Assembly (NCBI GenBank): GCA_910585075.1
Contig: CAJUED010000012.1
Location: 1-24,000, forward strand
Source of the DNA: an uncultured Lachnospiraceae bacterium
GTDB taxonomy: Bacteria; Bacillota; Clostridia; Lachnospirales; Lachnospiraceae
Direction of reading: 5' to 3'
DNA: 24,000 nt
In this document: one piece after another, positions 7,847 through 12,266 of the stretch
Numbering within the stretch: the first letter of the stretch is position 1
Layout of the letters: every line of letters starts with the position of its first letter
The notes under the pieces: model-generated
Seen by the model: only the letters and a program-made list of their open reading frames with translations
What the model was told of the DNA's origin: nothing
Database searches by the model: none
Position numbers and translations under genes: made by a program

Positions 7847-8371
7847 TTACAGTTCCGTATCTGCCCGGTCATAGTACAAATGCCCCTGTGCCACTTTCGC
7901 ATGGTTCAAAATCAGTATGAAATGCCTGTCCTGGTTCTCCAATGCCTTTTTATATCCGGTTTTCGTCAGAAACAGTCTCATCCGACTCCCTTTATCCCCT
8001 ATGGGAGACTTTTCCGAAAGTACATCAAACACAATCATATGCTCTACTTCCGGATCAAAGCGTTCCAATGCCATGATATCATGTCCTTCCAGCTTCCGGG
8101 CACCGGATTTCTGCCGGGCCACAGCAATCATTTCCCCGACAGTCCTTGCGCTATGGGGCAGATGATAATTTCTCTGAATGTCACAGATCAGTTCTCTGCA
8201 GTCATCCTCCGAAAGTTCACGCAGTTTCTTTAACAGATTTTCTGCAGTATCCTTTTTATCATGGTCACGGGTATACCTGCAGAATACAGCAATCTCCTGT
8301 ATTGCATCATATCTGCCGCACCCCTCCAGCTGAAAGACCATCCTTTTCTCATCTTCAGTCAATGTTATCAT
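7847..8371 (-). CDS. TTRAP-like (transposon-transfer assisting) N-terminal domain fused to an uncharacterised C-terminal domain
   Basis: Start placed at ATG 8371 (MITLTEDEKRMVFQLEGCGRYDAIQEI...) with GGAGGA at 8377-8382. The N-terminal roughly 70 aa follow the TTRAP pattern as I recall it (xTxEExxxxxxx....L..L..LSDxD). I do not recognise the C-terminal roughly 100 aa. Confidence 0.5.
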   Translation of the reverse strand: MITLTEDEKRMVFQLEGCGRYDAIQEIAVFCRYTRDHDKKDTAENLLKKLRELSEDDCRELICDIQRNYHLPHSARTVGEMIAVARQKSGARKLEGHDIMALERFDPEVEHMIVFDVLSEKSPIGDKGSRMRLFLTKTGYKKALENQDRHFILILNHAKVAQGHLYYDRADTEL

Positions 8372-8419
8372 ATATTTCCTCCAATCCATAATTGCCTGTA
8401 TATTTCATATAGCTGCCTG

Positions 8420-8965
8420 TTATTGCTCTCTGGCATCCTTATCATCCGGAAAGAACTTCTCCAGAATGTCGATACTGTCTTTGGATGTATACCCCCACAA
8501 GATAGAGCTGAGTGCGTCAATCGCCTCCCGTCTTCTGCGGTAATAAGTGCGGAAACTGATATCCCGGATATGGGGGCGCAGTTTCTCTATGATTTCCTCC
8601 ACATTCCGCAACTGTTGTGGAGAAAGGAAAGAGTAATACAGCAGCCAGTAATAGCTCTCCCCATTCTTGTGTTTAGTGCGGAGCAGGTCGATGGAAGTAT
8701 CCAGTAGTTTCAGCATCCGGTGGCTCCGTTCAATGCATTTGGCGTGATGTTCGATACTGCGGTCTGACAGATCGATCCCGGCAACATAGACGGACTCCAG
8801 AAAGTCCTCAATGGAACTGCCGTATTCAATCTCGAACCGGCTCCGTACCTGCTGGACGGACAGTTCCAAGCTCCACACCACATCCCTGTATTTCTTCAGC
8901 AGTTTCCAGGTATCATGGTACAGCGGGTTGTCAGTGATGTTCATTTCTTCCTGATTCTTTTTCAT
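8420..8965 (-). CDS. Sigma-70 region-4 / ArpU-like transcriptional regulator of the mobile element
   Basis: 181 aa. The C-terminal ...ISFRTYYRRRREAIDALSSILWG resembles the HTH tail of ArpU/sigma-like regulators found in clostridial conjugative transposons. ATGA overlap with the upstream HTH gene (8962-8965). Shine-Dalgarno GGGGGAG is present. Confidence 0.5.
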   Translation of the reverse strand: MKKNQEEMNITDNPLYHDTWKLLKKYRDVVWSLELSVQQVRSRFEIEYGSSIEDFLESVYVAGIDLSDRSIEHHAKCIERSHRMLKLLDTSIDLLRTKHKNGESYYWLLYYSFLSPQQLRNVEEIIEKLRPHIRDISFRTYYRRRREAIDALSSILWGYTSKDSIDILEKFFPDDKDAREQ

Positions 8966-10119
8966 GCTCTTTCTCCCCCTTCCTCATTCTTTTCAGCAGG
9001 CATGAGAACCAGCTCAAAAGTGTAGACTGGCTTATCTTCTCCGCAGCATACCGCCATTCCAAAACGTACTGCAGTCTTTGGTGTATGACATATATACTCT
9101 TCCCTGCAGGCGTCTGATAAAGGATATAACTTATATATAGATTTCTGGCACTGAAAACAGGAAATTCCCTGTGCATCAAGGACTTGCGCTATTTTTCTGA
9201 TAACAGCATCCATGTCTGATTTTGAAACGCAGGATAATTCTTCTGAAACGCATGCCTCATACCCAGTAACAACAGAATCTGCCTGCGGCTCTTCTTTATC
9301 CGGCAGCGTGATATTGATTTTCAGGATCATGGCAACCTCCTCTTTATCCACAAGAACATCTGATATCTGGAACATGGTGGAAAGATAGCTGTGCAGATAG
9401 ATCACACTGCCTGTTTTTCCGGGAAATGACATGAGAGAAATATAGTCCATGTCAGCAAGTTTTTTCAGCACACGCCCTGTCGTGGCTTTGGAGATGCCCC
9501 AGCGGGCAGCCATCTCACTGTAAGCCACTAACGGGGAGCCGGTGCCATTGCGGAAGTAAGCAACCGGGCCAATCTCCGAACCCTGCACCTGGCTGTCATT
9601 GTAGACAGCAGACATCCACAGATCCAGCAGGATATCCATTTCGGAACAGCGGCCGGCGCTGACCAGTTCGGTTGCAACAACAACCGGCATAAAGAAAAAG
9701 CCCGTATCTTTCTGACAGGGGCAGTTGTAATCCAGTACCGTATTCTGTTTTTTCCAGTCACGGATCTTATATTTGATTACCTTCCCACGGTCGAGGAAGA
9801 GATAGGAGATCAGGTGGCGTTTCTGCAGCTCGTCCAGGATGGAGACTGCCTGGCACTGGAAACGGGTACGGAACCATGCAGACAGTTCCTTTACGGTACA
9901 GATCCACTCGCCGGGATATACCGTATAGCCGATTCCATCTATACGGAGATAAGAGGTACGGAAGTTTGCATAGTTGCAGAGCACCGTATAATAAAACAGA
10001 CCGGAGCCTCCATTTGTACGAATGCTCCGGTCTGCCATTAAGTTCTGGATAAACTGCCGATAGATCCGGCAGCGTGGATAATCCACAATCTGTTTGATTT
10101 CTAATTGATATTCTGACAT
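8962..10119 (-). CDS. Helix-turn-helix (winged-helix) domain protein of the element; putative replication or regulatory function
   Basis: Start at ATG 10119 (MSEYQLEIKQIVDYPRCRIY...) with AGGAGAAAATC upstream; the track's 10209 start lacks a Shine-Dalgarno. Internal HTH reads YSEMAARWGISKATTGRVLKKLADMDYISL. Translationally coupled to the sigma-like gene. Confidence 0.6.
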   Translation of the reverse strand: MSEYQLEIKQIVDYPRCRIYRQFIQNLMADRSIRTNGGSGLFYYTVLCNYANFRTSYLRIDGIGYTVYPGEWICTVKELSAWFRTRFQCQAVSILDELQKRHLISYLFLDRGKVIKYKIRDWKKQNTVLDYNCPCQKDTGFFFMPVVVATELVSAGRCSEMDILLDLWMSAVYNDSQVQGSEIGPVAYFRNGTGSPLVAYSEMAARWGISKATTGRVLKKLADMDYISLMSFPGKTGSVIYLHSYLSTMFQISDVLVDKEEVAMILKINITLPDKEEPQADSVVTGYEACVSEELSCVSKSDMDAVIRKIAQVLDAQGISCFQCQKSIYKLYPLSDACREEYICHTPKTAVRFGMAVCCGEDKPVYTFELVLMPAEKNEEGGERA

Positions 10120-10188
10120 GATTTTCTCCTCATTTCTTAAAGTTTTTCTGATGCGAAAATTAAGTTTCTGCTGTTTACTCATTTTCTG

Positions 10189-10229
10189 CAAAAAAAATCT
10201 ACAAGACAAATTTCCAATGTCTTGTAGAT
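10189..10229 (-). terminator. Rho-independent terminator: 12-bp stem, 9-nt loop and T-run on the minus strand
   Basis: ATCTACAAGACA (10197-10208) and TGTCTTGTAGAT (10218-10229) are exact reverse complements. On the minus strand the stem is followed by T7 (plus-strand A-run 10190-10196). It sits between the uvrB junction and the first element gene. Confidence 0.6.
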
Positions 10230-10347
10230 CATAAATCAGCCTCTATTTCTTTTTCAAAATACTTTCCACGACGAATTTTGTTCACAATTCCTATGATTCC
10301 ACCCTGTTTTTTCAGTCCATACAGTCCATTCATTCCACAAGATATAG

Positions 10348-10377
10348 TATAAATAGGACTAAATAACACTAAATACA
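10348..10377. repeat. Three tandem 10-bp units (TATAAATAGG / ACTAAATAAC / ACTAAATACA) next to the element/uvrB junction
   Basis: Read directly. The core (C)TAAATA recurs with 10-bp helical phasing, 20-50 bp inside the apparent junction. Confidence 0.55.
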
Positions 10378-10397
10378 GTAGTTAGAAGTGCCTACTC

Positions 10398-10670
10398 CTA
10401 GTAGCTTACAAAGTACTCCACCGCATTCTCAGGGAAGAACTCCTTGAACTCGCCGTACAACTGTCCGGCCAGGGTTTTATTGTGGGCTATTACCAAAGTA
10501 GGCTTGTTTATAGCGGCAATCACATTTGCCATGGTAAAGGTCTTTCCGGAACCCGTTACCCCCAGTAAAGTCTGGAATTGATTGCCTTCTTTGAAGCCTT
10601 TGACCAGGGCTTCTATGGCCTGCGGCTGGTCGCCGGTAGGCTTATATTCACTGTGCAGTTTAAACTCCAT
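10398..10670 (-). pseudogene. uvrB: uvrB 5' fragment (excinuclease ABC subunit B, first 90 codons only), interrupted by the mobile element
   Basis: [52 protein letters not shown]...[14 protein letters not shown] is the canonical UvrB N-terminus including Walker A. Full-length UvrB is about 660 aa and continues YYDYYQPEAY. Here a TAG follows at 10398-10400 and the downstream DNA is unrelated. Confidence 0.85.
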
Positions 10671-10780
10671 AAACCTAATTCACCTCCAGAAATAAAATTT
10701 AAATGCTCTATTCCCACAGCAAAAAATCTGACCATTGATACGGCATTCCTGTATATGCTGCCTGTGCAAAAGCAGTTTTG

Positions 10781-10809
10781 ATTATAACATACGGGATAAA
10801 ATTTGTACA
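10781..10809 (-). promoter_or_regulatory. Candidate uvrB promoter: extended -10 TGtTATAAT and -35 TGTACA
   Basis: On the minus strand, TATAAT is the complement of 10781-10786, preceded by TGt. TGTACA lies at 10804-10809 with a 17-nt spacer. It is about 110 nt upstream of the uvrB ATG. Confidence 0.4.
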
Positions 10810-10819
10810 GCACTTTTCA

Positions 10820-10831
10820 GAACATTTGTTC
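10820..10831. promoter_or_regulatory. LexA (Cheo-type SOS) box GAACATTTGTTC
   Basis: aGAAC-N4-GTTCt palindromic arms match the Firmicutes LexA consensus CGAAC-N4-GTTCG core. It sits just upstream of the candidate -35 of uvrB, a classic SOS gene. Confidence 0.55.
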
Positions 10832-10964
10832 TTATTTCATAACAGTTCAGCCTTCAACTTCACTGTTACGGAATCTCTCCGGTTTCATACAATAATGGGA
10901 AAGTTGATGTTTCCGGCATTTATCTCAACCGAAAATACAACTTTCCCATTTATTCTTAACCATA

Positions 10965-12266
10965 TTACTGCTTCTTAGCAATTTCCTGCTCTAATATCTC
11001 AATCGCCTTATCCACCTGGTTATCGCTTCCGCTGGCCTCGCTGGCTTCATAGTCATACTCCAATTCAATATCCGGTTTGATTCCCGTACCATGGATATTC
11101 CTTCCCAGGGGCGTATAATAAGCGCTGATGGTCAGCTTAAGGGCGGTACCGTCGTTGAGCCGGTGTATCTGCTGGACAATTCCCTTTCCGTAGGTAGTGG
11201 TTCCAACCAGCGTGCCCTTTTTATAATCCTGAATGGCCCCTGCCAGTATCTCGGAAGCGCTTGCCGAATATTCATTTACCAGTACCACCAGGGGAACATC
11301 CAGCTCCTTTTCCCCGTCGCAGGAGTATTCCTTCCGTGTTCCCTGTTTGTCCTCGGTGTATACGATAAGCCCCTCCGGCAGTATTTTTCTGGCGATTTCC
11401 ACCACCGCATTTAAATCGCCCCCGGGATTGCTGCGAAGGTCAAGTATCATACCTTCCATACCGTTTGCCCGCAATTCCGCCATCGCCTCCGTATACTGGT
11501 CCACGGTCACCGCGTCAAACTCCTGAATCCGCAGATACCCGATATTGTCGGCATCCTCCAACATACCGCTGTCCACCGTGTTGGTCTCCAGCCGTTTGCT
11601 CCGTTTGATTTCCATCCGCTGGAAATCAACCTCGCCTTCCCTGTAAATCGTCAATTCCACAGTGGTTCCTTCCCGTCCCTTCACCAGGCTGACCACCTGG
11701 GTAAGGCTCATTCCCTGGGTGGACTCGCCGTCCACCTCATAAATGATATCCCCTTCCCTAAGACCTGCCTCCTCAGCCGGGGAGCCTTCCATAACCCCGT
11801 TAATCATGGCGATATTCATCTGCTTGCTCATGGAAATATAAGCCCCTATTCCATAAGAAACCCCCTGATTGCTGTTTACCACTTCCTCCAGTTCTTCTTT
11901 GGAATAATACTCGGAATAAGGGTCCCCTAAGGCATTTACCATTCCTTTATAAATGCCTTCCTGTATTCTTTCTTCGTCTATCTTATCCTCATAGAAATAA
12001 TACTCATTGATAGCATTCTCTATAATCTGCATTTTCTCAAAGGTGTCGGCAGTCACCACACTTTCACTGCCGCCCTCCGCAGCCGTATCCACCACGCGCC
12101 CTTTGTACAGCCGGTAAATCGTCCTTCCCAGATATCCGCATGTAAAAAGCAGGGATATGACAAGCATTCCCGTAACCATACCGCCTAAAAAGTATCCGGA
12201 ATGCTTCCCCTTCACCGGCTCATCCTGTCTCTCTATTCTGTTGTCCGTTCCCTCTGCCTTGTCCAC
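10965..12266 (-). CDS. S41 family C-terminal processing (tail-specific) protease with N-terminal TM anchor and PDZ domain
   Basis: 433 aa with a TM helix (FLGGMVTGMLVISLLF) and PDZ-like GDIIYEVDGEST. S41 catalytic blocks are LDLRSNPGG, SASASEILAGA and KGIVQ. GTG start with GGAGAG Shine-Dalgarno. Confidence 0.85.
   Translation of the reverse strand: MDKAEGTDNRIERQDEPVKGKHSGYFLGGMVTGMLVISLLFTCGYLGRTIYRLYKGRVVDTAAEGGSESVVTADTFEKMQIIENAINEYYFYEDKIDEERIQEGIYKGMVNALGDPYSEYYSKEELEEVVNSNQGVSYGIGAYISMSKQMNIAMINGVMEGSPAEEAGLREGDIIYEVDGESTQGMSLTQVVSLVKGREGTTVELTIYREGEVDFQRMEIKRSKRLETNTVDSGMLEDADNIGYLRIQEFDAVTVDQYTEAMAELRANGMEGMILDLRSNPGGDLNAVVEIARKILPEGLIVYTEDKQGTRKEYSCDGEKELDVPLVVLVNEYSASASEILAGAIQDYKKGTLVGTTTYGKGIVQQIHRLNDGTALKLTISAYYTPLGRNIHGTGIKPDIELEYDYEASEASGSDNQVDKAIEILEQEIAKKQ

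Follow-up and report, generated by a model that had tools for sequence, protein, structure and literature searches.

SOS-inducible mobile elements such as lambda, SXT and ICEBs1 carry a cleavable repressor (CI, SetR and ImmR/ImmA, respectively), and direct control by LexA is known for coliphage 186 tum and for CTXphi. In Tn916, a leader-peptide attenuator at tet(M) reportedly allows read-through that drives activation of the element. The left end of Tn916 carries a terminator that shields the element from host read-in, and read-through at this end is expected to be costly, as it would turn on genes for unwinding and rolling-circle replication (PMC12084037). With respect to target genes, dusA-specific islands replace the 5'-end of the gene into which they integrate (Farrugia 2015, PMC4482086), and streptococcal ICEs integrate in the 5'-end of ftsK, rbgA and ebfC (Ambroset 2016, PMC4701971). 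As for uvrB, LexA of C. difficile was shown to bind the uvrBA operator (PMC4234289). A literature search for uvrB as an integration target found no paper; PMC4894674 deals with the uvrB of plasmid pCF10 and was set aside as irrelevant to this question.

Judged by its sequence, the window, i.e. the whole 24,000-nucleotide stretch of DNA analyzed here, holds the left junction (attL) of an ICE-like element, probably of the tyrosine-integrase type, that targets uvrB at codon ~89. Like the dusA islands and the ICEs of ftsK, rbgA and ebfC, this element family, as seen in isolates, relies on a tyrosine integrase, leaves the original 5'-end of its target as outer boundary and provides a new 5'-end together with a promoter. 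Unlike these elements, its target is uvrB, and it exchanges a long segment that comprises the leader and about 270 nt of the coding region. This segment includes a LexA operator, so that SOS regulation would be copied as well. The operator has the same palindrome as the B. subtilis GAAC-N4-GTTC motif and the C. difficile uvrBA operator and belongs to the same gene, and the motif is also found at recA here. Unlike in the LexA control of uvrB described in Firmicutes, however, the operator of the window drives not uvrB but a 90-codon stub facing a mobile element, while uvrB would be served by a second, element-borne copy of the operator. As in Tn916, a putative intrinsic terminator is located just inside the end of the element and faces host transcription, and read-through would have consequences for the element; unlike in Tn916, neither a conserved leader peptide nor an antiterminator was found, the backbone is unrelated, and transcription comes in from one and the same SOS promoter in every case rather than from a random host promoter. 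Finally, the locus resembles lambda, SXT, ICEBs1, 186 and CTXphi in that DNA damage is a possible cue and a LexA operator stands upstream of element genes, but it differs from them in having no S24 or M78 gene within the element, in that the LexA box is part of a host-type promoter and in the terminator that lies in between. A LexA box at uvrB is textbook knowledge and element-edge terminators are known from Tn916.

The uvrB attachment site and the two ends of the element

All relevant genes at the junction are encoded on the minus strand. On the host side, genes of FtsE, FtsX, an M23 peptidase and a CtpA-like S41 peptidase (15185-10965) are positioned upstream of the uvrB frame; the ctpA-like gene (10965-12266) is the native neighbor 5' of uvrB, and the other three lie farther upstream. 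The open reading frame that follows (10398-10670) was recognized by homology as the displaced 5' stub of the host uvrB, comprising codons 1-90 with the Walker A motif and then TAG. In same-genus relatives uvrB is uninterrupted, and the homology of these genomes to the window stops at about 10408-10393. Comparing attL, attR and intact uvrB, we found that the sequences change partner at CCTA[C/T]TA, placing the att core, with the crossover beside CTA, at 10399-10405 and the boundary between host and element at about 10402/10401. Beyond CTA-Y-TA, the reconstructed att sites have little in common.

The element side of the junction consists of an att arm (10230-10401, minus strand), defined by a conserved block and by repeats. 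Direct repeats of ATGGACTG are located at 10329-10322 and 10320-10313, and an invariant block of 30 nt at 10291-10262 contains ATTCGTCGTGG at 10276-10266. The arm is a putative binding region of the integrase, which in this element family has an arm-DNA-binding domain. Searching with the 30-mer, we recovered it without a mismatch at 27 loci, in isolates and MAGs of Lachnospiraceae from the mouse gut. The block is placed identically after uvrB codon 89 in 25 of the 27, and the remaining two are look-alike secondary sites within other genes, with the orientation unchanged. At both secondary sites, L081 (bacterium C-53) and L072 (a MAG), the interrupted host gene points into the element. Examined by eye, one of them follows '...AFAND' in the 5' part of a gene that resembles an AlbA_2/divergent-AAA gene, and the other, GAATATTTTTAAGCATAC, is a mimic of the uvrB attB within a histidine-kinase-like gene.

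The opposite end of the element was observed in isolates with long contigs, where the uvrB stub and a full-length uvrB are found ~104 kb apart on one contig; the full architecture of stub and replacement was seen in four genomes (G441, G442, G444 and G382). One genome carries an array in the order stub, 24 kb, stub, 103 kb and full uvrB. At the attR of the 104-kb element the order is integrases, LexA box, promoter, leader, uvrB codons 1-89, core and host uvrB. The integrase genes are two, both of the tyrosine type, and the last of them encodes an Arm-DNA-bind_4 domain (G441). The LexA box that the element supplies at this end reads AGAACAAAAGTTCG, the promoter is of the extended -10 type, and the leader of the element-supplied uvrB carries three copies of ATTCGTCGTGG, the motif that it has in common with the att arm of the window. 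The reconstructed attP contains the promoter-stub unit, and the order of promoter, stub, att, terminator and gene is identical in the integrated and tandem states and would be so in the circular state.

The element of the window and that of G441 are 96.8% identical over 10664-6115 and 1614-1, the difference between the two being confined to defence cargo. The stretch between these segments (6115-1615), encoding Gabija, SieB and their neighbors, is swapped in G441 (contig C1) for another segment of 3.2 kb (L083, 7783-11027), and the Gabija/SieB block thus appears as an exchangeable cargo slot between conserved backbone genes. With PcfJ, a primase/YodL protein and a coupling protein of the VirD4 type among its products, we consider the element ICE-like: large, integrative and probably conjugative. 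Profile searches for AAA_10 (VirB4) and for a PF03432 relaxase gave no match inside the element. A search for the integrase in the genome of the window returned matches of ~24% identity at best, and the far end of the element falls outside this assembly. The TTRAP/DUF5720 backbone of the element resembles that of Clostridial conjugative transposons with serine recombinases; the possibility of a serine-recombinase element is contradicted by the repeats of the att arm and by the tyrosine integrases at attR. Acetatifactor aquisgranensis DSM 110981 (locus L070) is a cultured carrier of an element of this attL class, and the loci L061, L065 and L074 come from mouse-gut isolates.

At least three more att subfamilies occupy the same position in uvrB (L021, G004:C8; L022, G009:C3; L023/L024, G008; L052/L053, G382). 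Their junctions read CCTA/ATTTGG and CCTA/GTATA, and one of them has the arm motif ATTCGTGTAAT. These subfamilies form tandem arrays in which the older element-supplied uvrB stubs decay by an in-frame stop or a frameshift, and some of the inserts consist of only ~3 kb of defence-type cargo without an integrase.

The SOS promoter of the stub and a probable chimeric uvrB

The original prediction had placed a LexA-type box at 10820-10831 and proposed that it and a candidate promoter drive the truncated uvrB toward the element. A motif scan recovered the box at exactly these coordinates. Its core, GAACATTTGTTC, is located at 10820-10831, and on the gene (minus) strand the Cheo-type operator of the native host uvrB promoter reads AGAACAAATGTTCT (10819-10832). 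This is the single GAAC-N4-GTTC site of the window, and the 4.44-Mb genome has 36 such sites, fewer than the ~64 expected from its composition. The exact 14-mer AGAACAAATGTTCT occurs twice in the entire genome, in the recA promoter and in the promoter of the uvrB stub. Both lexA and recA are encoded in this genome, and near-consensus LexA boxes are found at lexA as well. LexA-type boxes are present 5' of intact uvrB in 6 of 10 same-genus relatives, counting those with enough upstream sequence, and 5' of the uvrB stub at 20 of the 27 related element junctions. The predicted promoter was likewise found: a sigma-A-type TGTACA-17-TG-n-TATAAT with an extended -10 (10809-10781, minus strand) matches the scan at 10 of 12 positions. 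The LexA box lies upstream of its -35, at a distance of 10 nt, and the same arrangement of box and TGTACA is repeated in L056 and in the element-supplied promoters. Because the 14-mer is common to recA, boxes are found at uvrB of the relatives and LexA of C. difficile binds the corresponding operator, we take the promoter at 10781-10809 to be the native, SOS-regulated uvrB promoter of the host. By all these features, the site at 10819-10832 is a bona fide SOS operator of the ordinary type, as far as motif and context can tell.

This genome also contains at least 18 copies of an intergenic repeat, dispersed and some 90-100 nt long, which ends in a conserved hairpin (GTAACAGTGAAGCCGAAGGCTGAACTGTTAC; full copies e.g. 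at G000:C53:13890-13990, C3:20160-20260 and C5:126086-126190). A partial copy that comprises the 3' hairpin only is located at 10840-10876 of the window (minus strand), between the ctpA stop codon and the LexA box, and a stretch related to the repeat is also found in the recA leader. An Rfam search with the repeat gave no family match.

The remainder of uvrB, residues 69-658, is found at the end of contig C22 of the same genome. The first 62 bases of this contig end are identical (62/62) to the element side of attR in the isolates G441 and G444. The sequences first differ right at the core CCTA[C/T]TA, and past the core identity falls to 77% and 68%. Over the equivalent codons, the window's own stub is identical to C22 at only 43/63. 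We considered that the divergent codons of C22 are due to a MAG chimera and rejected it: the match to the element side of attR is free of mismatches before the core and deteriorates right after it. With the displaced start in the window and an element-supplied start fused in frame at C22, uvrB of this organism is probably an intact chimera of an element-supplied 5'-end and a host 3' part. It had been suggested that excision of the element restores uvrB; given that uvrB is probably intact, excision is not needed for this purpose. By analogy with the isolates, the chimeric gene is probably still behind a LexA box and SOS-regulated; as the integrase end is absent from this assembly, this box is one that we infer. 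In correction of the earlier suggestion, uvrB would be neither sacrificed nor awaiting excision, the element having copied the start of the gene together with its SOS operator.

The hairpin beside the att arm and the first operon of the element

A terminator with a 12-bp stem at 10189-10229 had been singled out as the only visible barrier to transcription from the uvrB promoter into the element, and the analysis agrees with this down to the coordinates. The structure is borne by the element and, on the minus strand, pairs 10229-10218 with 10208-10197 in a 12-bp stem that encloses a loop of 9 nt; the T-run behind it extends to 10190 and counts seven T (eight with the last base of the stem). Its folding energy is -15.2 kcal/mol for the hairpin alone and -19.8 kcal/mol with flanks, the latter with z = -3.35 versus shuffles. 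Of the 27 related copies, 26 retain both the hairpin and the T-run, the exception having a deletion. Across 16 distinct sequences, stem pairing is preserved in 100% of cells; 4 of the 12 stem pairs vary, each on one side and each to G.U. Since the stem shows no double compensatory changes, the support from covariation is moderate. The G.U variants keep the pairing in the gene-strand RNA, while they lose both the pairing of the opposite strand and the symmetry of the DNA palindrome. The loop varies freely and in L066 is replaced outright, and the T-run after the repeat is invariant. Fold and conservation make an intrinsic terminator plausible, and transcripts arriving from uvrB would be expected to end here.

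Folding of the 296-nt leader returned the hairpin in both the minimum-energy and the centroid structures, and no competing antiterminator structure was seen in this fold. The upstream sequence TCTTGTGGA was considered as antiterminator; compared manually, it could form 9 bp with the 5' arm in the window and 7 bp in the common class, and was rejected as too weak. A leader-peptide attenuator of the Tn916 orf12 type was rejected for lack of conservation of the 34-codon sORF ending at the hairpin: no copy other than the window has its ATG (10333), in-frame stops interrupt it in at least 13 of the 27 copies, and the position of the stop shifts. An Rfam search of 9800-11100 gave only a sub-threshold match to csRNA, on the wrong strand.

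The first gene behind the hairpin, P0001 (8962-10119, minus strand), encodes a protein of 385 aa and has a strong Shine-Dalgarno sequence, GAGGAG, in front of its ATG at 10119. The protein is of the multi-winged-helix type, carries the database label 'MarR family' and belongs to a family of 1,874 matches. Domain searches (Pfam, NCBIfam, PHROGs) gave only weak wHTH matches, and a structure search with its AlphaFold model (pLDDT 62) gave no PDB match at E < 1e-3. P0001 is also the first gene in related elements with quite different integration modules. A role as regulator is reasonable but unproven. A second fragment of a P0001 gene (residues 252-385, 80% identical) at a contig end, G000:C93:6592-6993, may stem from another related element of the same genome. 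The stop codon of P0001 is overlapped by the gene of a 181-aa HTH protein, possibly sigma region 4-like (8420-8965, minus strand), whose matches are weak (PRK00118, E = 0.066; phrog_36 'transcriptional regulator', E = 1.5e-3), and the next gene (7847-8389, minus strand) is a TTRAP-like backbone gene with DUF5720 (E = 1.8e-41).

Looking for promoters of this operon, we found no sigma-A-like site in the gap that separates the T-run of the window from the ATG (10119), and all the copies lack such a site after the T-run. To this extent the original prediction, that no good promoter is evident in these 70 nt, stands; what it overlooked is a promoter-like site abutting the hairpin, TTGAAA-18-TATGAT (10257-10228, minus strand), which matches the scan at 10 of 12 positions and whose -10 box shares two bases with the beginning of the hairpin. 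The site is confined to the window's subclass and two other copies, and one of this kind is present in 6 of 25 copies. For 18 of the 25 copies the scan gave no sigma-A-like promoter anywhere from the att core to the start of the first gene. The common class has its promoter-like -35 and -10 spaced by 20-26 nt; no site passes the scan there, and only ~30 nt separate the T-run from the ATG.

Proposed insulation versus possible SOS-dependent read-through

We propose that integration displaced the LexA-repressed uvrB promoter of the host along with 90 codons and turned them into a dead-end stub aimed at the element. The far end would supply a new LexA box, promoter, leader and codons 1-89 fused to what remained of the host uvrB; with this replacement, the gene would stay whole and probably SOS-regulated. 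The terminator adjoining the att arm on its inner side would then stop most transcripts of the uvrB promoter before they reach the operon of P0001, the sigma-like HTH protein and TTRAP, acting as an insulator against read-in in the manner of the left-end terminator of Tn916, a reading to which we assign a probability of about 0.6. The anatomy of the junction, its conservation and the chimeric make-up of uvrB were read directly from the genomes compared; insulation would be the role for which the hairpin was selected. In favor of insulation, the terminator is strong, conserved and located at the very place where a constitutive-plus-inducible host promoter reads in. Against it, other att subfamilies that target uvrB are without the hairpin and have canonical promoters instead, and insulation is therefore not obligatory at this site. 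Furthermore, a perfect insulator would leave the first operon without a visible promoter in 18 of the 25 copies.

This last point bears on a different reading, in which the first operon is promoterless and is expressed only by read-through from the uvrB promoter past the terminator. Loss of LexA upon DNA damage would in this case increase expression of P0001 and the sigma-like protein in proportion and prime excision or transfer. We regard such a leak as possible and put it forward tentatively. It would account for the copies that lack a sigma-A-like promoter before the first gene and for the absence of any such promoter after the T-run, and it is in keeping with the constancy of the order promoter-stub-att-terminator-gene in every state of the element. 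Moreover, in and beside the 104-kb element GAAC-N4-GTTC is limited to the two uvrB promoters, that of the attL stub and that of attR, and the element encodes no repressor-protease of the S24 or M78 type: searches for Peptidase_S24 and Peptidase_M78 domains gave no match within G441:C1:43.5-147.9 kb or G442:C2:13.9-118.3 kb. On the other hand, the terminator is strong and under purifying selection, no alternative antiterminator fold was seen, and the 34-aa sORF lacks the conservation expected of a leader-peptide attenuator. Many ICEs are not SOS-inducible, and the operon may have a promoter that is non-canonical or dependent on a sigma factor encoded by the element. Because most copies have no recognizable promoter for the first gene and a repressor-protease was not found inside the element, leaky read-through in proportion to SOS induction is retained as a less probable alternative to insulation.

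In the window's subclass, the operon may be transcribed from the site that abuts the hairpin. Transcripts initiated at TTGAAA-18-TATGAT would start inside the 5' arm, and being without a complete hairpin these transcripts of the element itself would escape termination, while transcripts reading in from uvrB would be stopped. The score of 10/12 speaks for such an embedded promoter, as does the recurrence of this layout in L061, L065, L074, L078 (with TATAAT) and L077; in addition, A2, T3, A5 and T6 of the hexamer that precedes the stem are invariant among the copies, although part of this conservation is accounted for by the stem itself. Given that the common class, with its longer spacer, has no site that passes the scan, we consider this explanation rather improbable. 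An embedded promoter and insulation are mutually compatible. The inverted repeat might also act as DNA, either as an operator for P0001 or as a site for a recombination directionality factor. It is a perfect 12-bp palindrome adjoining the att arm and stands upstream of a gene for a DNA-binding protein; yet all four substitutions in its arms break the DNA symmetry and keep the pairing of the gene-strand RNA, the loop was swapped wholesale in L066, and an invariant T-run follows the repeat. Taken with these observations, a role as DNA site is very improbable, and we retain the terminator as insulator as the preferred reading.

The insulator reading aside, the element family copies the start of uvrB with its operator, and for this reason an SOS promoter precedes the element in each of its forms, be it a single copy, a tandem or the excised state. 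It is conceivable, if unlikely, that the family took the SOS promoter of uvrB as a damage sensor, which is carried in attP and met again at every attB. In the same speculative reading, which we likewise judge unlikely, a promoterless regulatory operon behind a leaky terminator would be expressed at a level that rises with cleavage of LexA, with no need for a cleavable repressor encoded by the element. That an SOS promoter is invariably paired with an apparently promoterless first operon is of modest interest in itself. If the terminator does leak, a gut ICE with defence cargo would have in this arrangement a highly economical means of sensing DNA damage.
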